Shown here: piece after piece, positions 4,234 to 26,461 of the stretch
Layout: each line of letters opens with the position of its first letter
Numbering within the stretch: the stretch's first letter is position 1
Assembly: GCA_964556895.1 (NCBI GenBank)
Contig: CAZKYC010000001.1
Coordinates: 29,371 to 93,370 of the forward strand
Direction of reading: 5' to 3'
Length of the DNA stretch: 64,000 nt
DNA from: an uncultured bacterium
Lineage (GTDB): Bacteria > Hinthialibacterota > Hinthialibacteria > Hinthialibacterales > Hinthialibacteraceae
The notes under the pieces: generated by a model
What the model was told of the DNA's origin: nothing
Seen by the model: only the letters and a program-made list of their open reading frames with translations
Databases searched by the model: none
Translations under genes and position numbers: made by a program

Positions 4234-4302
4234 GGGTGTATCTCTGAGAGCGCCTGTGCTTTAAAGCCGCTGAAAATTACACTCACAAATCCAGATACAC
4301 CC
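4234..4302. repeat. Solo copy of the family-1 core hairpin, diverged. It overlaps the last codons of the gene at 4283-5356.
   Basis: ggcatgggtgtatctctgagagcgcctgtgc...cagatacaccc shares the 5' stem and the gagcgcctgtgc loop block with family 1. The 3' stem arm encodes the C-terminal residues VGVYLDL* of the minus-strand gene. Confidence 0.55.
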
Positions 4303-5356
4303 CGACGCCAACGTAGTCGCCGTCTTGGCTAAACGCAGGAAAATTCAATGGCCGCCCGTTGTAATACTCTAACAACAAGCGCAGCGCCTTGCTTCGAAAC
4401 GGCCAGTCTTTAAACTCGACGCCCGCCGTGTAGCGCTGGTTAAGTTCCCAGTCGTCTTCTTCCCAGGTGGTGAAGTGCACGCCAAACACGGGGTGAATCG
4501 ACAAATGAGACCAGGGACGGTACTCGCCGCCAAACACCATCTCAAGCGGGTCGATGTCGCCCACGTCATCAAAGATATACACCGGCCCGCCATACACCCG
4601 CCAATCGGGTTGGCTGTAAGCCAGCGTCAAGTCGACCAGGTTACGGTCAAGTTGGCGGCCCAGAATATCAAGAAACGGCGGCAGCTCGCGCACGATATGG
4701 TCGTCGCCCAAATGGCCGCTGCGGTGCATGTATCTCACCCGCGCAGTGAAGTCGTCATAGTGAAAGATGAATGGAAACCCGACCTGAAAGTCAGTGTTTT
4801 CGAGATCGCCGCCGTTTTCCATATTGAAGTGGCCAAACACGCCGCCTTCAATGTTCATCTGGACGGTCAACCCTGGCGTGAACACATTCGTCCAACGATA
4901 GAGCGGCAACACTTCGCCAAAGCCAACCACGCCCGAGTTGTCCATATCATCGCTCGCGCGGTAACTTAAAAAGAACCGCGATTCCCATGGGTCGGCGACC
5001 AGCGGCTCAAACAAATCGCCCTTGGGGAACAACCCTTCGGTCGATTCGTTGATTTCGCTCGCCCAGTCAGTTTCATTCACTTCTTCACCTTGTTGTTCAA
5101 AGCGAACAGAACGAACGCCCGGCGCGCTTTGTAATGCGTCTTGAATCTCATTGCGAATAGCCTGATCTTGTGGAGCGTTGAGAATGATAATCGCGCCGGC
5201 TTTGACGATCACGTCCGCTTTAATTTGGTGAGTGGTTTGCAGAATCGCCGTCGCGTATCCACGTAAAAACTCATCGCTGGATGACTGCTGTGAAACCGAA
5301 GAAGAACAAACCACGCCTATGGCTAGTATCATCACGACCAAATGTTTAACCATCAT
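4283..5356 (-). CDS. Secreted, likely outer-membrane-associated protein with an N-terminal BON-like domain and a beta-rich C-terminal domain.
   Basis: 357 aa. Signal peptide MMVKHLVVMILAIGVVCSS. BON-like segment IKADVIVKAGAIIILNAPQDQAIRNEIQDALQSAPGVRSV. The C-terminus is rich in aromatics and Gly. Function not assignable. Confidence 0.5.
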   Translation of the reverse strand: MMVKHLVVMILAIGVVCSSSVSQQSSSDEFLRGYATAILQTTHQIKADVIVKAGAIIILNAPQDQAIRNEIQDALQSAPGVRSVRFEQQGEEVNETDWASEINESTEGLFPKGDLFEPLVADPWESRFFLSYRASDDMDNSGVVGFGEVLPLYRWTNVFTPGLTVQMNIEGGVFGHFNMENGGDLENTDFQVGFPFIFHYDDFTARVRYMHRSGHLGDDHIVRELPPFLDILGRQLDRNLVDLTLAYSQPDWRVYGGPVYIFDDVGDIDPLEMVFGGEYRPWSHLSIHPVFGVHFTTWEEDDWELNQRYTAGVEFKDWPFRSKALRLLLEYYNGRPLNFPAFSQDGDYVGVGVYLDL

Positions 5357-5555: not shown

Positions 5556-7289
5556 TTACGGCAATTCAATCACCCTCTCGATGCGCCCGCCTTTGAGCGA
5601 GTCAACAACCAGGTTGGCCTTGCCGCGGCCTGACACGATAAACTGGACGCGCACCGCGCCCATGCCCGGCACGCGGTTGACCGCCAACCGCTCTGGCCGC
5701 GCCTTGACCGCGCTGACTTTCCCAAAAAAACGGTCGGTCACATGCCCGCCGCTGATCACTTCGATATCGGCGCCCGACAACATCACTAAGTCGGCGCGAT
5801 TAATGTTGTTCTTACTATCCTGCTGAAGCCGGGTCGGGATCATGCCCTGATTGCGAATCTCAACCCACACTTTAGACAAACCGTCGCGCAACCGCTCGAC
5901 CTCGATCTCGCCAAATTCGAGCAGCGGGGTTTGTGACGCATGATAGAGCGTAAACGCCATGTTGCGGTGGCATTCTTCTTCTAATAAAAACGACGGCGGC
6001 ACGCGGCCAAACTCTTTCTTGACGCCGCCGATCTCTATGGCGCCATATTGGGGGTGGTCGTATGGCCGCCACTCGACCACGCCGTCATTTAATAATAGAT
6101 ACCGCAAAAAATCGCCGCGCGCGACCGCGCCGGTGTCGTTACTGCGAAACATGTTTTTCGGCGTCCACAATTCGTTGGTGAAGGCCGAGATGCCCCGGCC
6201 AGCGTAAAACCAGTCGAACTGTCCGCCCCAGACTGGATACAGGTGTTCCCATGAGATGACGTTAACATATTGCGGCAGCATGCGCTCCCCGCGCTTGGCG
6301 ATATCAATCATCAGGCGCTCGTCTTCTGGCTCAAGCGGCCCGCCGTCGCGATTTGGCCCGCGCAAGATCATGCCGCCGTAATTATGAAACGAAACCATCC
6401 CGCCAATGTTCGGGCGCGACAACACAAACTCGCCCACCGCGCGAACCGCCGGGAACGAGAAGGGAAAATCTTTCGCCCAATATTGAACATAATGAGGCTG
6501 CCAGTCGAACGCCCAGTTTCGGTTGGGGTCATAGCCGCCGGGGTTGTCTTCGTTGACGCGGCCGTCGCCGTCGTTGTCGACGCCTTCATAGCCCAACATA
6601 CTATACTCGCCGCGCTCGTCAGGCTCCGCGGGGACCATCTGAAACTCCGGATAATCAGGATGAGGCAGATACCGCCCGTTGGGGTCGCGCTTGCGCATCA
6701 TGGTGATCGAGCCGTCGCCGTTTAAATCGTCGAACGGGTCTTCATCCATGCGCCCGTCTTTGTCTTCATCGGTGGGGATCTGGCCGGTGCGCGACGAATG
6801 TTGGGTATTGGCGTTGTGAAACCAATAGTCGCGTCCGTCTGGGTTCACACTTGGCAACAAATAAATCACCCGCGAATCAACCAGGTCTGTGACCAGTTCG
6901 TTCTTGCCGTAATTCTCACACAGATACCACGCGGTGTAAGCCACCACTTCGCCGGCTTGCACCTCGTTGCCGTGTATGTTGCCGTCGATATACATGCCCG
7001 GCTTTCGGTCAGGGTCGCCCATGTCGCGATTGGTGACTTCTAACACCCACACCGGGCGCCCCTGATATGACTCGCCAATGGAATACAACTTGGTAATTTT
7101 TGGATACGCCTGATGAAGTTGTTGTAAGATCGACGCCAGCCCGTCTACGTCGTAGAAGCGGTTCCACGACACATCGACGTTTCGCTGGGCCGGCGCGCCC
7201 AATGCCTTGAATGCGTTTTCATCAAGCGCAAACGACGTGACAGAAAATACGGCGACTAAGAATCCAGTCAGGAAGGTTCGCTGCGTCAT
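5556..7289 (-). CDS. Secreted M14-family zinc carboxypeptidase.
   Basis: The HxxE zinc motif is present (GNIHGNEVQAGE), as is NPDG. N-terminal signal peptide MTQRTFLTGFLVAVFSVTSFA. RBS GGAAGGAG lies 7 nt before the ATG at 7289; the track's earlier M overlaps this RBS. Contains a DEDPFDDLNGDG calcium-loop-like insert. Confidence 0.85.
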   Translation of the reverse strand: MTQRTFLTGFLVAVFSVTSFALDENAFKALGAPAQRNVDVSWNRFYDVDGLASILQQLHQAYPKITKLYSIGESYQGRPVWVLEVTNRDMGDPDRKPGMYIDGNIHGNEVQAGEVVAYTAWYLCENYGKNELVTDLVDSRVIYLLPSVNPDGRDYWFHNANTQHSSRTGQIPTDEDKDGRMDEDPFDDLNGDGSITMMRKRDPNGRYLPHPDYPEFQMVPAEPDERGEYSMLGYEGVDNDGDGRVNEDNPGGYDPNRNWAFDWQPHYVQYWAKDFPFSFPAVRAVGEFVLSRPNIGGMVSFHNYGGMILRGPNRDGGPLEPEDERLMIDIAKRGERMLPQYVNVISWEHLYPVWGGQFDWFYAGRGISAFTNELWTPKNMFRSNDTGAVARGDFLRYLLLNDGVVEWRPYDHPQYGAIEIGGVKKEFGRVPPSFLLEEECHRNMAFTLYHASQTPLLEFGEIEVERLRDGLSKVWVEIRNQGMIPTRLQQDSKNNINRADLVMLSGADIEVISGGHVTDRFFGKVSAVKARPERLAVNRVPGMGAVRVQFIVSGRGKANLVVDSLKGGRIERVIELP

Positions 7290-7291
7290 GA

Positions 7292-8992
7292 TTATTCTCC
7301 TTCCCAAGTGATTGTTTGAGTTACGCTTCCGCCAACGGCAGAGATCAATAAAAAGGCCGTCTTGCTGCCTGGCGCGGCCTGTACCACAACCCTGGCTTCA
7401 CCCACCTCGCCTTTGGCGAGGCGCCCGAATGTGGTTCGCGGTTCGCCTGCGAGAAAGGCGTCATCCGGCAAATCAATTTCCAACCGGGTCGGGACAATCT
7501 CCGTCGTGCGTACGCCGTGTTGTAACGCTGTAGGAAGATAACCGGTGTTGGTCACGCGCGCGGTGACTTCATACACGCCGCGCCGTAATGATTTGACCTC
7601 AATCCCTTCAATCTCAACCCGCGGCAGCGACTCGCCTAGCGAGAGCAGAAACTCAACATGGGATCGCTTCCAGTCGTCGAACACATCCATTGGCGGAGTG
7701 GTCAACGCATACGGCGCCCAACCACCAATCTCTACGGTCTGGCCTGGATAATCGGGATGGTCAAACCCGCGCCATGGAATGAAATAATCGCCAGCCCGGT
7801 CACCCAGCCAATTCAGGTATTCAACCTGGTCTTTCTCGCGTTCTTCTTGAGATGGCTCATCGTCGGTTTCTTCGCCTTCATCGTCTTTTGTCTCATCCTG
7901 CTTCATTGCCAATGCAACCGCTGGGCTCCAGCCTGAGGCGACCAATCCCATTCGCCCGCGATGAAAATACACCCAATCGGTCAACGCACCGCGCACGCTT
8001 TCAGTTTCATCAACCTCGTCAAGGCCAACTAGGTCGCGATAGGTTTCGCCGACGTGGGTGTAATACTCAGCGTCATCGTCTGTGATTTTGGTTTGGGGAG
8101 TCCTGCCTGAAGTTTGCTTTTCCGTAGCGGGCGCTTTCGCGAGGTTGTCGTTTGACGCGAAGGCAAACACCACCCCAATGTTTGGATGGTCAATAATAAA
8201 GCGCCCCAGCGCATTGGTGATGTCTTCTCGTAATGGATACGCTCCGGCCTGGGCGTCAAACCACGGGTAGTCAAACGTGAATTGCTTGTTGAAATTGACG
8301 CCGCCCACTCCATCTTCGTTGAGCATGGCGTCGGCGTCATTGTCTTTGCCCTCGCGCAAGTACACCCACTGGCCGTCTTCGCCTTTGACTGGGTCAGCTT
8401 CGATCAAGATGCGTTCATCATCTGGATGAGCGATGTAGGCGCCGTCGGCGTCTTTCACTCGCATCCAGGTGACAAGCCCGTCGCCGTTGAGGTCTTCGGG
8501 CGGGTCTTCATCAACAAACCCATCGCGGTCGTCATCGTATGGGGTGAGATTTGAATCGCGGTGAAATCGGGGCGAGCGAAAAAAACGCTCTGAGGCGTCT
8601 GGGTTCAATCGTGGAACCACATAGACGGTGATGTCATTCAGCCGCGCCTTGTTGTCAGCGCTGAGCAACGATTCAACGAACGCCAACGCCGCTTCGCTTC
8701 CCGCCGGGCGGTCGCCTTCGATGTCGCCGATCACCAACAATGCCGGACGGACGAGCCGCAGTTCAGCGCCGCCGGCGCCAAGTTCGATGAGCCATACATC
8801 GCGGCCTTCGTTTGATTTCGCTAGCGACGAGTGATGGGCGAGTTTAGAACTGCGGCTTAGCGTTTTCACCTGCTCAGTGAGTTGACGATGAGTCGAGAAC
8901 GGCGGCGCCGACTCGTTTGCAAAGCACATCCGTTGCAAAGGCAGTAGAGAGGCGGCGAACATACCAATGTACAACCAAGGGGAGCGTATCAC
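7292..8992 (-). CDS. M14-like paralog with degenerate zinc ligands, probably a pseudo-peptidase. Secreted.
   Basis: Homologous to the downstream M14 enzyme along its whole length, including the DEDPPEDLNGDG insert. At the position of the NIHGNE zinc motif it reads DIEGDR, so His becomes Glu and Glu becomes Arg. NPDG becomes NPDA. Hydrophobic N-terminus. Its stop is 3 nt from the next gene's start. Confidence 0.7.
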   Translation of the reverse strand: MIRSPWLYIGMFAASLLPLQRMCFANESAPPFSTHRQLTEQVKTLSRSSKLAHHSSLAKSNEGRDVWLIELGAGGAELRLVRPALLVIGDIEGDRPAGSEAALAFVESLLSADNKARLNDITVYVVPRLNPDASERFFRSPRFHRDSNLTPYDDDRDGFVDEDPPEDLNGDGLVTWMRVKDADGAYIAHPDDERILIEADPVKGEDGQWVYLREGKDNDADAMLNEDGVGGVNFNKQFTFDYPWFDAQAGAYPLREDITNALGRFIIDHPNIGVVFAFASNDNLAKAPATEKQTSGRTPQTKITDDDAEYYTHVGETYRDLVGLDEVDETESVRGALTDWVYFHRGRMGLVASGWSPAVALAMKQDETKDDEGEETDDEPSQEEREKDQVEYLNWLGDRAGDYFIPWRGFDHPDYPGQTVEIGGWAPYALTTPPMDVFDDWKRSHVEFLLSLGESLPRVEIEGIEVKSLRRGVYEVTARVTNTGYLPTALQHGVRTTEIVPTRLEIDLPDDAFLAGEPRTTFGRLAKGEVGEARVVVQAAPGSKTAFLLISAVGGSVTQTITWEGE

Positions 8993-9175
8993 GAGATTTT
9001 CCTTCTTACTTGTCAGAGTTTCAAAACAAGTTCAACAATTCAATTTCAACATAGAAACGTTCGCCGCCGACTTCAAGGCCTTGCGCTTGCATTCAACCGC
9101 CGAGTTCGGTTAGACTGTGTGGTTAATTGTCCTGCACGACACGCTCTGTCATCATATCGCCCTGGAGGGTCGTTT

Positions 9176-10798
9176 ATGTCGAACCAGAATTCGAACGGAA
9201 TGCCGCGCGAAAGTTGGGGAACAAAAATCGGGGTCATTCTGGCCGTCGCCGGCAGCGCGGTCGGGCTAGGCAACTTCTTACGCTTTCCTGGCGTCGCTGT
9301 TCAAAACGGCGGCGGCGCGTTTATGGTCCCTTACTTTATTTCGTTTCTCCTGGTCGGCATCCCCATCTGTTGGGCCGAGTGGATCATGGGCCGTCGCGCC
9401 GGGCGGTTGTCAGGCCTCGCCTCTGCGCCTGGGCTGTTTGGCGTATTGACCAACGGCAGCCCCATGCGCTATCTAGGGTCGCTCGGGTTGTTTGTTCCAT
9501 TCATCATCTATTTATATTATGTCTATATCGAGTCGTGGTGCCTCGCCTATTTCTTCTTTATGTTGTCAGGCGCCCTAGATTTAACCGACTCGGCCATCTC
9601 TGGCGTCTATGGCCAATTTTTCAATGAATTTGTCGGCAACTTTACCAGCGATGCCGTCGTGACCACAGATTTTTTCTCTGGCGTTAGCCTGGCTTATTTC
9701 TTTTTCCTCATCACATTCTTCATCAACTTCTTCTTTATCTATCGCGGATTGAGCCGCGGCATTGAACTGTTCTGCCGCTTCGCCATGCCCGCGCTGATGA
9801 TCATGGCGGTCATCATCGCGATTCGCGTTATCACACTTGGCAACGTCACCCCCGAAACCCCCGAACAAAACTTCATCAACGGTTTGGGGTATATGTGGAA
9901 CCCCGACTGGTCGACCCTGAAAAACCCAGAAGTCTGGATCAACGCCTGCGGCCAGATCTTCTTCTCGCTTTCGGTCGGGTTTGGCATCATCATCACCTAC
10001 GCCAGTTATCTCAGCAAAAAAGACGACGTTGTGCTCAGCGGCCTCACCGCCTGCTCAATGAACGAGTTTTGTGAAATTTGTCTGGGCGGGTTGATCGTCA
10101 TCCCGTCAGCGTTGATCTTTTTGGGCATCTCTCAAATGGAATCGGTCGCCCAGGCGGGCACCTTCAGCATTGGCTTTGTCGTCATGCCTGAGATCTTCGA
10201 CCAGATGCCGGCGGGCCATTTGTTTGGCGCCATGTTTTTCTTCTTGCTGTTTCTCGCGGGCGTCACCTCGTCGCTGTCGATGCTACAACCGGTCATCGCG
10301 TTTCTTGAAGAAGGCTTTGGCCTCAACCGAAAGTCGTCAGTCGCCATTTTGAGCCTGATCACCTTTCTCGGCGCCAGCTCGATTATTCTCTCGCCCGGCC
10401 TCACCGCGATGGACACCATCGACAAATATTCCAACAACTTGGGCATCCCGCTGCTCGCCTTGTTTGAAGTCATCATCTTTATCTTTGTGTTAAAAGTCTC
10501 GAATGGAATCAAAGAAGCCCAACACGGCGCTGACTTACAACTGCCCAAAGCGTTTGGGTATGTGATTTATATATCGCCCTTGTTCTTGCTGTTGATTTTG
10601 GGCTGGTGGGTCTACATTCAAGTGTCAGACTATTTAAAAGGGACCGCCCCACCGTTGGGAACGATTGAAACCGTCTCGATCTTAGGCATGATCGCCGTCT
10701 TGATCATGTTGGCGATATTACAAAAACTCGCCTGGCCGCGCATGCAGCGCCGCCACCGCGCATACAAAAAAATGATGGAAACCGAACCACTCGATTAG
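9176..10798 (+). CDS. Sodium-dependent transporter of the neurotransmitter:sodium symporter (NSS / SLC6-like) family.
   Basis: Hallmark N-terminal motif GSAVGLGNFLRFP...GGGAFMVPYFISFLLVGIPICWAEW. About 12 TM segments. RBS GGAGGG lies before the ATG at 9176; the track's start is further upstream in a stretch that is unlikely to be coding. Confidence 0.9.
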   Translation: MSNQNSNGMPRESWGTKIGVILAVAGSAVGLGNFLRFPGVAVQNGGGAFMVPYFISFLLVGIPICWAEWIMGRRAGRLSGLASAPGLFGVLTNGSPMRYLGSLGLFVPFIIYLYYVYIESWCLAYFFFMLSGALDLTDSAISGVYGQFFNEFVGNFTSDAVVTTDFFSGVSLAYFFFLITFFINFFFIYRGLSRGIELFCRFAMPALMIMAVIIAIRVITLGNVTPETPEQNFINGLGYMWNPDWSTLKNPEVWINACGQIFFSLSVGFGIIITYASYLSKKDDVVLSGLTACSMNEFCEICLGGLIVIPSALIFLGISQMESVAQAGTFSIGFVVMPEIFDQMPAGHLFGAMFFFLLFLAGVTSSLSMLQPVIAFLEEGFGLNRKSSVAILSLITFLGASSIILSPGLTAMDTIDKYSNNLGIPLLALFEVIIFIFVLKVSNGIKEAQHGADLQLPKAFGYVIYISPLFLLLILGWWVYIQVSDYLKGTAPPLGTIETVSILGMIAVLIMLAILQKLAWPRMQRRHRAYKKMMETEPLD

Positions 10799-11134: not shown

Positions 11135-11785
11135 TCACATCGAGCGGATCAGGCCCACCACGATGCCCAACAGCGCAAAACTTTGGCCGTTGTCTGGGCC
11201 GCCCGCGTCGGGGATATGAATCGGGGCGTATGCCCGGTTGGCCGGTTCCAAAACCACTTCGTTTGATCCGCGTTTATACCGCTTCACCGTCGCTTCATCT
11301 TCTAACCGCGCCACCACGATGTCGCCGTTATTGGCGTTGTCTTGTTGGCGCACTACCACAATGTCGCCGTCATGAATGCCCGCTTCGACCATACTGTCGC
11401 CACTCACGCGCAAACCAAACAAATCAGGCTCAGCCGCGCGGTCGCCGAAAAACTGTGGGTCAACTGTCAACTCGTCTTCGCGAATGTCAGGCTCAGCCAG
11501 GCTAAACGGCCCGGCGGGCACCCGCCCCACAATCGGCATCTGATACGTCCGTCTGGGCGGCGGCGGCGCGGGGCGGTCGGTGCGGCGCATTCCTCGCGAC
11601 GTGTTTGACTGCACTTCGAGATGCCCCATTTTCTGAAGCCGCAACAGGTGATAGCGAGCGCCATTGGTCGACGCAATTTTGAAGCGCTTACAAATTTCCC
11701 GTAGGGTTGGGGGGTAACCGCTTTCGTCCATACTTTCGTCGATGAATGCCAGAATTTCTTTTTGCCGCTTGGTCAATTCTTTCAT
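11135..11785 (-). CDS. lexA: LexA repressor (S24 peptidase).
   Basis: N-terminal winged HTH (TKRQKEILAFI...GYPPTLREICKRF...LLRLQKMGHLE). C-terminal S24 domain with the catalytic Ser (VSGDSM) and Lys (VKRYKR). RBS GGAGAG lies 5 nt before the ATG of MKELTK; the track's M at 11797 is a TTG overlapping this RBS. Confidence 0.9.
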   Translation of the reverse strand: MKELTKRQKEILAFIDESMDESGYPPTLREICKRFKIASTNGARYHLLRLQKMGHLEVQSNTSRGMRRTDRPAPPPPRRTYQMPIVGRVPAGPFSLAEPDIREDELTVDPQFFGDRAAEPDLFGLRVSGDSMVEAGIHDGDIVVVRQQDNANNGDIVVARLEDEATVKRYKRGSNEVVLEPANRAYAPIHIPDAGGPDNGQSFALLGIVVGLIRSM

Positions 11786-11827
11786 GGCGCTCTCCAAATG
11801 AGTGCTATTTTGTTCAATATTATATGT

Positions 11828-23543: not shown

Positions 23544-24173
23544 ATGAAAGATCAACAAATGACAAAAATGAAATCAGGTTTTACCTTAATTGAATTGTTA
23601 ATTGTCGTCGCCATTATTGGCGTCCTCGCGGCCATCGCCGTGCCCAACTTTCTGAATGCGCAGATTCGCGCCAAGGTGGCGGCGGCCCAAAGCGACATGC
23701 GCGCGCTCGGAACCGCGCTCGAAATGTATTCACTCGACAACAACGCCTACCCGCCCTTTCGCCATGACATCAACGGCGAGTGGCGCTATAAGGGCGCGCT
23801 GGCGCGGCTGACCTCGCCAGTGTCATACATGAACACCATCCCCAACAGCGACCCATTTAATTCAGAGGCGCCATCGGCGTATGGCGGCGCAACCGACGAC
23901 GCCAATTATGGGTATACCTATGTCGATTACAAATCATTTTCGCCCAATAACTATTGGCCGTTGTGGGCCAAGCCGCTCAACATTCTGTGGGTGCTCTATA
24001 GTTTTGGCCCTGACCGCAACGATGACGTGGGCGTGGTGGCGATTGGTAAAGTGATCGGCCCGAATTTTGACATTCCCACATGGAACCCAAACCGGGTTCC
24101 CTATTCGTCATCAAATGGAATCATCTCCAACGGCGACCTCATGCGCTCCAACCACGGCGATCACAGTAAGTAG
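23544..24173 (+). CDS. Prepilin-type (GspG-like) pseudopilin paralog.
   Basis: MKSG|FTLIELLIVVAIIGVLAAIAVPNF prepilin motif. C-terminal SFGPDRNDD motif. 209 aa. Confidence 0.8.
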   Translation: MKDQQMTKMKSGFTLIELLIVVAIIGVLAAIAVPNFLNAQIRAKVAAAQSDMRALGTALEMYSLDNNAYPPFRHDINGEWRYKGALARLTSPVSYMNTIPNSDPFNSEAPSAYGGATDDANYGYTYVDYKSFSPNNYWPLWAKPLNILWVLYSFGPDRNDDVGVVAIGKVIGPNFDIPTWNPNRVPYSSSNGIISNGDLMRSNHGDHSK

Positions 24174-24298
24174 AAGTCAAGGAATTCTAAAAAAAAAAGA
24201 TAAAAAGATTGAAAAAACTAACCCACTAGATTCCTTCCTGTTCATTTACGCGTTATGTGTCTATAATTGCACAACTTGTTATATCAGCGGGGATCAAC

Positions 24299-24847
24299 GT
24301 GTCAAAAAAGAAAAACGGCTTTTGGGAAAGCCTTCGAGCGAACTATGATGAGATGCGAATCGTGTTTGTCTTTGAACATCTCCAAGAACAAGGATTTGAT
24401 TTAGACCAAATACTCCAATCAAATAATGTCTCAGACCGCATTCCACTCTTAAAAGCCTTCAAAGAATTTGAAAAACAAAAGCCTTGGTCAGATTTTGTTT
24501 TTGATAATGATGAGATATGTTATTTATTAGCGAGAATAGTAGATTATAGAGGAGTGTGTAGATTTCTTTATGATTTAGAAGACAAAAGTGTGTTAGAGCC
24601 AGATTTTAAACTTCATGAACATTCCGAAAAATATGATGACGAGAACGAGAACGACAAGTTACAGTTGCAAACAGACATAGAAAATGCTAAGAATTCTGTG
24701 AGTATTTTGTTGAAATACGAAATAATTGTAAAGAATGGAAGAAAATTTTCGTTAACTAAAGAAGGTAGAGAATCGTTTGTTAATGTACAGTATGAGAGAA
24801 TTGAAAAAAACGCAGTTCTTTCATATTGGAGGCCAAAGAAAGGATAA
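24299..24847 (+). CDS. Hypothetical acidic protein in the AT-rich islet. No recognisable domain.
   Basis: The ORF stays open from 24257. Candidate starts are the GTG at 24299, preceded by GGGGA, or the ATG at 24353. A TATAAT lies at about 24261. Composition is markedly AT-rich relative to the flanks. The C-terminal 40 aa (ILLKYEIIVKNGRKFSLTKEGRESF) loosely resemble a winged helix. Confidence 0.45.
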   Translation: MSKKKNGFWESLRANYDEMRIVFVFEHLQEQGFDLDQILQSNNVSDRIPLLKAFKEFEKQKPWSDFVFDNDEICYLLARIVDYRGVCRFLYDLEDKSVLEPDFKLHEHSEKYDDENENDKLQLQTDIENAKNSVSILLKYEIIVKNGRKFSLTKEGRESFVNVQYERIEKNAVLSYWRPKKG

Positions 24848-24852
24848 GAGCC

Positions 24853-25134
24853 ATGACAAATATCAGTCCTGATCGAATGATTGACGCTTATGGTCAGCTC
24901 ATTGAAGAAGATCCAAATTTGGTCGAATTTTTTTCCCGAATCAATGAAAAGAATACAATAAGGATACGTGATCTTGCTGGCCCTTTTCAGGATTACTACA
25001 ATGCGTTGCGTGGGTTTGGTTTTCTAGAAGCAGAAACTGACCATCTTAGCCGCGACACAAAAATAGTATTTGCTGAAACGGGGAAAAAGTTTTGGGAAAA
25101 ATACGGATCTAAAATCGAAGAGTTGCGTAACTAG
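24853..25134 (+). CDS. Hypothetical 93-aa protein in the AT-rich islet, translationally coupled to the upstream ORF.
   Basis: AAAGGA lies 8 nt before the ATG of MTNISPD. It overlaps or abuts the preceding ORF. No recognisable motif. Confidence 0.45.
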   Translation: MTNISPDRMIDAYGQLIEEDPNLVEFFSRINEKNTIRIRDLAGPFQDYYNALRGFGFLEAETDHLSRDTKIVFAETGKKFWEKYGSKIEELRN

Positions 25135-25163
25135 GAATTCATCTATATTACGACTTCTTATAA

Positions 25164-25190
25164 AGGCTCCTCCAAATGGAGCCTTTTTGT
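25164..25190. terminator. Bidirectional Rho-independent terminator between convergent genes.
   Basis: ggctcc-tccaaa-tggagcc hairpin with an A-tract on its 5' side and TTTTT on its 3' side. It lies between the 3' ends of 24853-25134 (+) and 25204-25806 (-). Confidence 0.7.
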
Positions 25191-25203
25191 ATTCTATATT
25201 CTA

Positions 25204-25806
25204 TCAATACGGCATGATCACGCCCTCGTGAGAGGCGTAGATCTCACCATTTGACTCAACGCCGTTTGAGATGTGATAGACGTGTTTGATTGCTTGTGAT
25301 GGTGTGTACATCCACATCATGTCTTCATCTAAATCCGGCCCCATGCTACTCAAAGTAAACGCTTGAGCGCCTAAATTATATCTTTCTCTTATCGTATTTG
25401 AATATTCATACAATGGATGGATTTTTCGCCCGTAGTTCCATCTTTCTTTGATCGCTTTTACATAAAACACGTCTTCTGGAATAGATGAAATATACGCCGT
25501 AGGGGTTGTCAATAGGGTGTATGAGTAGATTTCCGTTTGAAATTGAGCGCCTTGCGTTCCTTTTTGCGAATTAAACGCAGGAGAAAGGCTACTGTGATTA
25601 CCATCAAAATCAGGCGGGGTGTCTTTGTAGTCGAGATAATAGGCGTTAATCGCGTCTGACAGTTTTCCTAAGTCGGTCACTGCTTGAGCGAGATCAGCGC
25701 GAATTTGCGCCTTGGAGAATTTTGGCAGCGACACCGCGAATAAAAGCCCCAACACAACTACGACAACAATGATCTCAGCAATGTGAATTCGGCGAAGCGA
25801 TTTCAT
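25204..25806 (-). CDS. GspG-like pseudopilin paralog with a degenerate prepilin cleavage motif.
   Basis: Same fold signature as its neighbours (hydrophobic N-helix, ...SMGPDLDED motif). The leader reads MKSLRR-IHIAEIIVVVVVLGLL and lacks the Gly(-1)-Phe(+1) pair; the +5 Glu is kept. Confidence 0.65.
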   Translation of the reverse strand: MKSLRRIHIAEIIVVVVVLGLLFAVSLPKFSKAQIRADLAQAVTDLGKLSDAINAYYLDYKDTPPDFDGNHSSLSPAFNSQKGTQGAQFQTEIYSYTLLTTPTAYISSIPEDVFYVKAIKERWNYGRKIHPLYEYSNTIRERYNLGAQAFTLSSMGPDLDEDMMWMYTPSQAIKHVYHISNGVESNGEIYASHEGVIMPY

Positions 25807-25885
25807 GCGTCCCCCAAGAACTACGCGGATAAAGAATCCTAAAATGGTTACGTGTCAATTTATAGGGGGAGAAACACTATGGCGC

Positions 25886-26461
25886 TCAGCCTTTTTTGGC
25901 CTCGAGCGCCCGGCGGGCTTGGGAGAGGTGGCGCGATTGGTGAACGAGCAACAATACGACCCATTGGCCCACACTGACCTTCAACCACGACGCGGCGGGG
26001 GACGGCATTTTGGTTTTGGACGGGTCTTTTCCTTTGAGGTTTGAAATCACTTCGATGAGGTCGCCCTGCCAGCGTTCAAACTCTTCGAGCATCGGGTTGG
26101 TCTCAAGCGCGGCTTGAGGGACATACAGCGAAGGCGCTTTGAATCGCACCTTGGGCCGCTGCTCGCTTCCACTGGCGAGGTAGACGAACATGCGCTCAAA
26201 CATCGAATAGTGATAGCGGTCGGGGCGCTTTGACTCGTCGGCCTTCATCGACTCGACCACCTCGCCAAGGTTGGGCAGCATCTTCGACGACACTTCGATC
26301 AAATGTTGAAAACATTCCGCCGCCGACCAGCCGCCGTCGCTGGGGTGGGCCTGCCATAACGACGCGTCAGACGACTCAACGATACGACGCGCTTCGGCGT
26401 TGAGACGCTTGGCTTCATCAATCAAACTTGGTATGTCATCATCAGAATTAAATTGGATCAT
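25886..26461 (-). CDS. DinB/YfiT-like (DinB_2 superfamily) four-helix-bundle protein.
   Basis: GGWSAAECFQHLIEV and downstream His residues match the DinB_2 metal-binding pattern. 191 aa. Confidence 0.45.
   Translation of the reverse strand: MIQFNSDDDIPSLIDEAKRLNAEARRIVESSDASLWQAHPSDGGWSAAECFQHLIEVSSKMLPNLGEVVESMKADESKRPDRYHYSMFERMFVYLASGSEQRPKVRFKAPSLYVPQAALETNPMLEEFERWQGDLIEVISNLKGKDPSKTKMPSPAASWLKVSVGQWVVLLLVHQSRHLSQARRALEAKKG

Follow-up and report, generated by a model that had tools for sequence, protein, structure and literature searches.

A conserved tandem of M14 carboxypeptidase paralogs whose upstream member has lost its catalytic residues

M14 carboxypeptidases are single-subunit enzymes, and two adjacent M14 genes of which one encodes a complete catalytic set and the other does not raise the question of what the inactive product provides. 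Such a pair occupies part of the window, the whole stretch of 64,000 nt of DNA that was analysed. The upstream gene, here termed UP (7292..8992, minus strand, as are all features below), runs from a GTG start at 8992 to a TAA stop at 7294-7292 and encodes a catalytically dead M14 paralog, or pseudo-carboxypeptidase, of 566 aa, and the downstream gene, DN (5556..7289), begins with an ATG at 7289 and encodes an M14 carboxypeptidase of 577 aa, as judged from its open reading frame and its Pfam and PDB sequence matches. As listed by program, the DN reading frame begins further out, at an overlapping TTG (7307).

An intact enzyme and a degenerate copy

The original prediction described tandem M14 paralogs homologous over their full length, and the comparison bears this out: UP and DN share 26% identity over 506 aa (BLASTP, E 2e-45), far beyond chance, and both match the Pfam profile PF00246, Peptidase_M14. 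For DN this match (2e-49, 169 bits, with a cut-off of 21.6 bits) places the protein in the M14 family, and UP, with a match of 6e-14 confined to its N-terminal part together with an M14 fold, belongs to the family as a homolog. NCBIfam holds a model for neither protein.

DN is the predicted zinc carboxypeptidase of the pair. Its structure model matches the folds of carboxypeptidases T and A (Foldseek, E 2e-16), and its PDB sequence matches are carboxypeptidase D domain II (1h8l, the best) and carboxypeptidases T, N and M. The motif NIHGNE (residues 104-109; 6963..6980) is an intact HxxE zinc motif, invariant in all 79 orthologs and in alignment A2, SFHNYG (residues 300-305; 6375..6392) contains the third zinc ligand, His302, and FTNELW (residues 370-375; 6165..6182) the catalytic Glu373. 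The full set of H106, E109, R153, N256, R257, H302, Y351 and E373 corresponds to H69, E72, R127, N144, R145, H196, Y248 and E270, and its members are conserved in 76-79 of the 79 orthologs. An assignment of specificity from CPA position 255 (Phe358) was abandoned, the position being variable among orthologs. The M14 alignment begins at residue 43 in DN and residue 32 in UP, just past a signal-like segment in each; in DN about 20 residues separate the signal peptide from the M14 domain, which leaves no N-terminal pro-segment, in keeping with subfamily M14B (N/E, 'regulatory').

The contrasting motifs on which the original prediction was founded are present as described, with UP reading DIEGDR (residues 90-95; 8708..8725) where DN reads NIHGNE, and NPDA (130-133) where DN reads NPDG (149-152). 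DIEGDR is a degenerate HxxE motif in which H69 has become E92 and E72 has become R95, and an independent alignment with human carboxypeptidase M (1uwy) likewise sets its HxxE against E92 and R95. Two zinc ligands are thus gone, as predicted, but the damage is not confined to them. In BLASTP and MAFFT alignments the third ligand, H196, is replaced by Ala279 within AFASND (residues 277-282; 8147..8164), and alignments place Ser353, within VASGWS (residues 351-356; 7925..7942), at the general base E270. R127 has become Ser134, R145 has become Lys236, and Y248 is a glutamate or an aspartate depending on the alignment, leaving N144 as the only residue that UP keeps among the general-base and substrate-binding set (N144, R127, R145, Y248 and E270). 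None of the residues that mark an active peptidase at H69, E72, H196, E270, R127, R145 and Y248 survives, and with E92, R95 and A279 at the zinc-ligand positions UP is therefore an M14 non-peptidase homolog and not a peptidase.

The loss extends across the UP family. In an alignment of 41 sequences (A1) glutamate is invariant at position 69, and in orthologs position 196 is occupied by G, S, T or A and never by His, and position 270 by P, R, K, S or A and never by Glu. Replacement residues vary by clade (E, D, H or K at 69; D, H, Y or R at 72), and there is therefore no single conserved 'new site' in the family. In most UP orthologs position 69 is acidic and position 270 or 72 is basic, at the place of the former metal site, and a UP-specific FHRGR motif has H344, R345 and R347 invariant or nearly so in A1.

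An insertion is common to both proteins, with the motif DEDPPEDLNGDG in UP and DEDPFDDLNGDG in DN. In UP it extends from the NPDA motif to the N144 position (roughly residues 134-232; 8279..8536) and contains the loops DDDRDG and DLNGDG and the related DNDADAMLNEDG; in DN (roughly residues 154-253; 6513..6770) it contains three DxDxDG-type loops, DEDKDG, DLNGDG and DNDGDG. Motifs of the form D-x-[DN]-x-[DN]-G accordingly number two in UP and three in DN, and at least two DxDxDG-type motifs are present in 73 of 78 UP-type and in all 76 DN-type proteins. The insertion is thus shared, as originally described. The DxDxDG sequence pattern is there, and an EF-hand, a helix-loop-helix with a 12-residue loop and a terminal bidentate Glu, is not: a Pfam search up to E 0.1 gave neither protein an EF-hand match, the loops are surrounded in the models by coil and beta structure and not by flanking helices, and the twelfth loop residue is Pro, Arg or Asn. 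The loops are putative calcium-binding sites. A PDB search with the insertion segment alone, taken as far as E 10, gave no sequence relatives. Confidence in the structure models is moderate (pLDDT 76-77) and falls below 50 in the insertion loops; in the UP model the loops adjoin a small beta unit, and both models end in an all-beta part (UP 459-562, DN 457-576), a candidate for the transthyretin-like beta-sandwich that follows the catalytic domain in M14B enzymes. The M14 fold, the insertion and the C-terminal beta-rich domain are retained in UP from an ancestor common with DN.

Gene arrangement and conservation of the pair

Read from the sequence, the gene junction (7287..7300) is GGAGAA-TAA-TC-ATG, comprising a Shine-Dalgarno-like GGAG, the UP stop, a spacer and the DN start. 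The spacer is therefore 2 nt and not the 3 nt originally given, and the same spacing occurs in the ortholog pair of Ca. Hinthialibacter antarcticus; over 79 loci the gap has a median of 19 nt, with an overlap in 17 pairs. As originally described, the putative ribosome-binding site of DN is embedded in the 3' end of UP: GGAG lies in the terminal codons of UP, 7 nt ahead of the DN ATG. A promoter scan gave matches at chance level, and no Rfam RNA element was found within the window. Terminator-like matches fell mostly within the UP and DN coding regions. Both proteins are predicted to be secreted, periplasmic or extracellular, in agreement with the earlier description and as judged solely from their hydrophobic N-termini: signal-peptide-like segments span about residues 1-25 of UP (MIRSPWLYIGMFAASLLPLQRMCFA; 8918..8992) and about residues 1-22 of DN (MTQRTFLTGFLVAVFSVTSFA; 7224..7289), with 13-residue hydropathy maxima of 1.84 and 2.3, respectively.

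Whether relatives maintain the pair, a check that the original prediction had proposed, has a clear answer. The live copy lies directly downstream in 79 of 80 genome loci anchored on UP, drawn from many phyla, the lone exception being interrupted by a contig end, and the dead copy lies directly upstream in 69 of 69 informative metagenome loci anchored on DN; adjacency thus holds in 148 of 148 informative loci, with the order dead then live in every sampled locus. The UP-anchored genome loci came from an alignment-based contig scan, a scan with the single UP protein having given nothing, and UP's own sequence is absent from the matches of the UP homolog search, a 39-aa fragment standing for its 90% cluster. 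A search for contigs that encode the exact DN product gave no record. Across the sampled loci no third neighbour gene is conserved. An SNF transporter and LexA are neighbours shared only with the close relative Ca. H. antarcticus. The module is found in more than 1000 protein clusters at 50% identity, in Planctomycetota, Verrucomicrobiota, Bacteroidota and other environmental phyla, and its cultured carriers include Runella salmonicolor S5, Arcicella aquatica LMG 21963, Pedobacter sp. Hv1 and Planctomycetales bacterium 10988. In six proteins of Phycisphaerae (for example MBX3355142.1) the dead and live copies are naturally fused, with one signal peptide per fusion. The pair is ancient and seems to be obligatory.

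What the inactive copy may contribute

The explanation that we consider probable is that UP is the non-catalytic subunit of a secreted M14 carboxypeptidase heteromer in which DN is the enzyme; the binding, the 1:1 stoichiometry and the contribution of UP are what we infer. On this reading UP and DN together make up an ancient and self-contained module of two genes, in which UP, since its descent from a shared ancestor, has lost its zinc site, all catalytic residues and most of those that anchor the substrate. The two genes are co-transcribed, with translational coupling probable, and the products would assemble 1:1 as a stable heteromer. The likeliest role of UP would be to stabilise DN, or to shape or gate access to the active-site funnel, possibly via the shared and highly conserved calcium-loop insertion, a segment of 99 residues that holds 25 of the 77 columns invariant in the UP alignment of 41 sequences. 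Catalytic loss, purifying selection, strict adjacency and fusion all lend support to the initial reading of UP as the pseudo-peptidase partner of a live twin. Adjacency and fusion, conserved as they are, would also fit two proteins that act one after the other, or a UP that serves as a cleavable element like a pro-segment in place of a stable complex.

In a rival reading UP acts in trans as a pro-domain, chaperone or inhibitor, binding DN transiently to help it fold, or to keep it from acting before export or some trigger, and being released or degraded afterwards. UP would then replace the pro-segment that DN lacks, and it does always precede DN in operons and fusions, as a pro-region would, and evolves faster than DN. 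This reading is nevertheless unlikely, as UP is a full-size copy of the three-part enzyme whose invariant columns go far beyond the needs of a pro-segment, and no conserved processing motif was seen at the junctions of the six fusions. It is quite unlikely, too, that UP is an independent non-catalytic binder of peptides, cell-envelope polymers or calcium, co-regulated with DN and never in contact with it. N144 and R145 hold the C-terminal carboxylate of the substrate in active M14 enzymes, and among 81 UP-type proteins N144 is kept in 62 and R or K at 145 in 69; known M14 pseudopeptidases are, moreover, binding proteins (PMC11266112). The fusions, however, carry D at 144 and L or M at 145, so that carboxylate binding is not family-wide, and unbroken adjacency together with fusion exceeds what co-regulation usually entails.

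Conserved replacement residues invite the thought that UP has been neo-functionalised, with another metal site or chemistry built from E92, from the Asp or His that other clades have at position 72, and from the FHRGR motif. Acidic and histidine side chains can bind metals, and in A1 the glutamate at 69 is invariant and the FHRGR residues are so or nearly so. Yet position 196 offers no third ligand (Gly or Ala), nothing remains of the general base, R127 or Y248, the clade-to-clade variation does not fit one conserved catalytic site, and the UP of this window has Arg at position 72, all of which makes a new activity very improbable. That UP is merely a decaying duplicate without function, a pseudogene in the making, has next to no probability: its faster evolution and an interrupted or shortened frame in 2 of 80 loci (L007 and L046) are what decay would produce, but about 150 loci from different phyla keep the frame intact, dN/dS is about 0.15, indicating purifying selection, and UP is retained as a domain in fusions. 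Together with the invariant columns, these conservation data effectively refute it already.

Returning to the heteromer, conservation across many phyla, sometimes as a fusion, points to an undescribed two-subunit peptidase. A more far-reaching version, which we put forward tentatively, is that the pair is the founding case of a widespread, phylum-spanning class of obligate heteromeric M14 carboxypeptidases, containing the first bacterial M14 pseudopeptidase and standing to M14 as the alpha/beta enzymes stand to M16B. In such an enzyme the dead subunit and the calcium-loop insertion would form or gate the substrate chamber, and activity or specificity would depend on the dead partner. If true, this module of a dead and a live copy would bring heteromeric architecture to the M14 family and provide a clean bacterial system for learning what a pseudoenzyme gives its active twin, and the cultured carriers (Runella, Arcicella, Pedobacter and Planctomycetales) put the idea within direct experimental reach. 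The pair has a practical bearing on annotation as well. The names that the dead copy receives from current pipelines, 'M14 family metallopeptidase' and even 'murein tripeptide amidase MpaA', overstate the peptidase repertoire of the carrier genomes.

Relation to known systems

To our knowledge, the known dead relatives of M14 enzymes are all eukaryotic and matrix-binding. A literature search whose coverage leaves out most subscription journals, and in which absence is not proof, found no account of UP and DN as a pair and none of a bacterial M14 pseudopeptidase, and a 2024 review contains no bacterial M14 pseudopeptidase (PMC11266112). Among active enzymes, carboxypeptidase T of Thermoactinomyces vulgaris (M14A; identity 18%) is a single catalytic domain of 323 residues with a pro-segment and, unlike UP and DN, has neither the DxDxDG insertion of roughly 100 residues nor a C-terminal domain nor a dead partner. 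AEBP1/ACLP, CPXM1, CPXM2 and the fungal Ecm14 resemble UP in combining an M14 fold and substitutions at catalytic positions with non-catalytic action. Ecm14 has E270K and AEBP1 has E270Y, and AEBP1 and CPXM1/2 are collagen-binding animal M14 pseudopeptidases (PMC11266112). All of these proteins are eukaryotic, however, and most keep H69 and E72, whereas UP is without all three ligands; none is reported to pair obligatorily with an adjacent active paralog.

In gene organisation there is a likeness to the M16B peptidases, the mitochondrial processing peptidase alpha/beta and its bacterial homologs in two-gene operons, which likewise pair active and inactive paralogs encoded by adjacent, co-oriented genes conserved across taxa. 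Substrate binding in M16B depends on the dead subunit, and in related enzymes the two halves share a single chain (PMC11266112). M16 and M14 have nothing in common in fold or clan (the M16 clam-shell as opposed to the M14 funnel), and the M16B heterodimer is experimentally established whereas that of UP and DN is one we infer. The likeness is one of working and not of membership. Within M14 itself, metazoan carboxypeptidase D (M14B) joins an inactive third domain, CPD-III, to active M14 units. CPD-III is without E72, H196, R127, R145 and E270 (PMC11266112). Carboxypeptidase D and the UP-DN pair have in common a beta-rich C-terminal domain in each unit and no N-terminal pro-segment, and the Phycisphaerae fusions share with carboxypeptidase D the layout of live and dead M14 units in a single chain.

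A disabled and a complete M14 paralog in tandem

Two long minus-strand open reading frames lie head to tail in the window, the upstream gene (UP; 8992 to 7292, GTG start, TAA stop at 7294-7292) encoding 566 aa and the downstream gene (DN; 7289 to 5556, ATG start) encoding 577 aa. Read directly, the junction is GGAGAA-TAA-TC-ATG; the spacer, originally put at 3 nt, is 2 nt by this reading, and the DN ribosome-binding site does fall within the 3' end of UP as proposed, a Shine-Dalgarno-like GGAG being situated 7 nt ahead of the DN ATG inside the final UP codons. The two products are homologous over essentially their whole mature length, as had been predicted (BLASTP of UP vs DN, 26% identity over 506 residues, E 2e-45). 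Pfam PF00246 (Peptidase_M14) matches DN at 2e-49 and UP weakly, at 6e-14 and over the N-terminal 95 residues only; neither has a dedicated NCBIfam model. NCBI has entries for both exact products, encoded on a single 139.5-kb contig. The hydrophobic, signal-peptide-like segments at both N-termini suggest that UP and DN are exported.

In bovine carboxypeptidase A numbering, the catalytic and substrate positions H69, E72, R127, N144, R145, H196, Y248 and E270 correspond in DN to H106, E109, R153, N256, R257, H302, Y351 and E373, and in UP to E92, R95, S134, a retained Asn, K236, A279, a lost Tyr and S353. An independent phmmer alignment sets UP IEGDR on MHGDE of human carboxypeptidase M (1uwy). 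The original prediction that two zinc ligands of UP are mutated was correct but understated, since UP has lost all three ligands as well as the general base. By its residues, DN qualifies as a complete M14 enzyme; UP is a homologous member of the M14 family, yet not an M14 peptidase by the family's defining tests.

In the nearest named relative of the source, the MAG Candidatus Hinthialibacter antarcticus, the orthologs are adjacent genes (MDP8243651.1 and MDP8243650.1), also with a 2-nt spacer, and the order LexA, SNF transporter, UP, DN and ABC-2 permease is common to both. A secreted 357-aa DUF1207 protein (4283-5356, minus strand; Pfam 5e-46) is encoded on the same strand 200 nt downstream of DN; its gene is missing from the otherwise syntenic H. 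antarcticus locus, so it probably does not belong to the module. The sodium:neurotransmitter symporter family (SNF) transporter (9119-10798, plus strand), divergent from UP, is syntenic in the close relative (L081) and not kept beside the pair in other phyla; carboxypeptidase action might be tied to amino-acid uptake, though nothing supports this. The LexA repressor gene (11135-11797, minus strand; LexA_DNA_bind and Peptidase_S24), two genes from the pair and syntenic with the relative, has no evident functional link to it. Elsewhere, 24001-26000 has a G+C of 0.41 vs 0.50-0.58 in the rest of the window, several short ORFs of ~200 aa on both strands and no Rfam match.

Co-inheritance and natural fusion of the pair

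The pair proved to be conserved in relatives, a point raised with the original prediction. In an alignment-based, UP-anchored scan of one genome per species, which yielded 80 loci, a DN-type gene directly follows the UP-type gene on the same strand in 79; at the sole exception (L043) the sequence stops 121 nt past UP. These loci span Planctomycetota (Pirellulales, Phycisphaerae, Sedimentisphaerales, Planctomycetaceae), Bacteroidota (Arcicella, Runella, Leadbetterella, Roseivirga, Chitinophagaceae, Pedobacter), Verrucomicrobiota, Balneolaceae, Gemmatimonadota, KSB1, Aegiribacteria and others. Reciprocally, a UP-type gene lies upstream in all 69 DN-anchored metagenome loci with at least 600 nt ahead of the DN-type gene, two of them having been flagged for no other reason than long stop-to-stop ORFs. 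The order in sampled loci is invariably dead then live; the estimated gap has a median of 19 nt and is 30 nt or less in 49/79, with overlap in 17/79. Beyond UP and DN the neighbourhood shows no recurrent gene family; the commonest of the others appears in 11/81 loci. At ~150 sampled loci across many phyla, UP and DN are thus inherited together, in strict order and with tight spacing.

In 99.8% of locus comparisons divergence is faster for UP-type than for DN-type proteins, with mean identities of 38% and 51%. UP and DN distances are correlated (r = 0.93), and within-locus UP-to-DN identity (23-35%) is mostly under both, a pattern that fits a single ancient duplication followed by co-inheritance.

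UP and DN can also be fused. A representative search recovered MBX3355142.1 (P0297; 1235 aa; L162 4001-7708), from a 495-kb contig of a Phycisphaeraceae MAG, and this query in turn found five further full-length fusions (P0397-P0401; 1220-1265 aa, 59-72% identical) in independent assemblies, plus one partial. All six belong to a Phycisphaerae clade and join dead and live units in one chain of ~1230 aa: the N-terminal half is UP-type, reading D-R-A/T-D-x-G-x-T at the eight catalytic positions, and the C-terminal half retains H-E-R-N-R-H-Y-E in full. The only signal-like segment of each fusion is N-terminal (hydropathy maxima 2.0-2.9), and the six junctions, with Pro/Ala-rich linkers of ~50-70 residues, have no hydrophobic stretch (maxima 0.65-1.55), so the DN signal peptide has been lost. 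These fusions are genuine, kept over substantial divergence, and not read-through artefacts. In a different multi-peptidase fusion, P0461 (1272 aa), a DN-type unit of the same M14 subfamily (residues ~720-1240) lies behind an M28/PA/TFR-dimer (PSMA-like) peptidase module.

A selected pseudoenzyme and its shared insertion

From 41 family sequences, AlphaFold2 gave a UP model with a pTM of 0.81 and a mean pLDDT of 77; the DN model (pTM 0.80) is similar and matches carboxypeptidases T and A. Both comprise an M14 domain, a ~100-residue insertion and a beta-rich C-terminal domain, an architecture that no solved structure covers entirely (query TM about 0.4). The insertion, which has no sequence relative in the PDB, lies between the NPD(G/A) strand and N144, where carboxypeptidase A has 17 residues. 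It carries two D-x-[DN]-x-[DN]-G loops in UP (DDDRDG, DLNGDG) plus a related DNDADAMLNEDG, and three in DN. The EF-hand-like insertion originally described is indeed common to both proteins, but its loops are DxDxDG-type calcium-loop motifs rather than canonical EF-hands: Pfam gives no EF-hand match, the models show no helices on either side of the loops, and loop position 12 is not Glu. The loops may bind calcium. The insertion is the most conserved region of both proteins (invariant-column fraction 0.25 vs 0.11 elsewhere in the UP family, 0.29 vs 0.17 in the DN family). In carboxypeptidase A the stretch from residue 127 to residue 144 adjoins the active-site funnel, and if the pair has an interface or a lid, the shared insertion is the obvious place for it.

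At 69/72/127/145/196/248/270, nearly all of the best 120 UP homologs (38-65% identical) read E-D-A-R-G-x-K/R, and the small subclade of the window's UP reads E-R-S-K-A-x-A/S. Asp at 72 is paired with Lys or Arg at 270, and Arg at 72 with a small residue or Pro; because of this charge pattern, a maintained salt-bridge network may fill the former metal site. UP is under purifying selection, since its dN/dS against the H. antarcticus ortholog is 0.15 (DN 0.10), at a dS of 1.2-1.4 that is near saturation. Searched in full with HMMER, 1.84 billion cluster representatives yielded 1145 matches to the UP profile at E 1e-30 or better. Across the genome-scan loci UP-type proteins never carry H196 or E270, and DN-type proteins keep H69 (79/79), E72 (79/79), H196 (77/77) and E270 (76/76). 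UP is a folded, selected and catalytically disabled M14 paralog. Two MAG loci (L007 5869-7653; L046 6526-7704) have an intact DN-type gene next to a split or truncated UP-type gene; misassembly could explain this, as could an occasional genuine loss of the dead copy. At 90% identity the exact UP sequence is clustered under a 39-aa fragment as representative, an artefact of clustering through which a word-indexed homolog search missed full-length UP.

A proposed complex and its parallels

From a disabled but selected UP, a complete DN, strict co-inheritance and natural fusions, we infer that the two would assemble as a 1:1 heteromer with UP as the non-catalytic subunit, following a Rosetta-stone argument and the established general behaviour of operon-encoded complexes. 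UP might stabilise DN, shape or gate its active-site funnel, or play a pro-segment-like role. Among the rivals, the strongest is that UP acts as a transient chaperone or inhibitor; less probable is an independent binding protein, and less again a neo-functionalised enzyme. That UP is a decaying pseudogene is ruled out by the conservation data. The original interpretation, a dead paralog serving its active twin as a regulatory, scaffolding or substrate-delivery subunit, is supported.

In databases both proteins carry the labels 'M14 family metallopeptidase', 'hypothetical protein' or 'murein tripeptide amidase MpaA'. The M14 family is well known, as are pseudoenzyme partners; an ancient bacterial operon-encoded dead/live M14 module, and this pair itself, were not found in the searchable literature, coverage of which is incomplete, so that novelty is unproven. 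The dead/live pattern is robust, and cultured Bacteroidota and Planctomycetota allow it to be tested directly. The M14 pseudoenzymes listed in a 2024 review of metallopeptidase pseudoenzymes (AEBP1, CPXM1, CPXM2, carboxypeptidase D domain III and fungal Ecm14) are all eukaryotic, and most keep H69 and E72 (PMC11266112). In architecture the closest parallel is carboxypeptidase D, in which live and dead M14-plus-beta-domain units share one chain; in mechanism it is M16B (MPP alpha/beta and bacterial two-gene operons), of unrelated fold, whose active subunit requires an inactive paralog.
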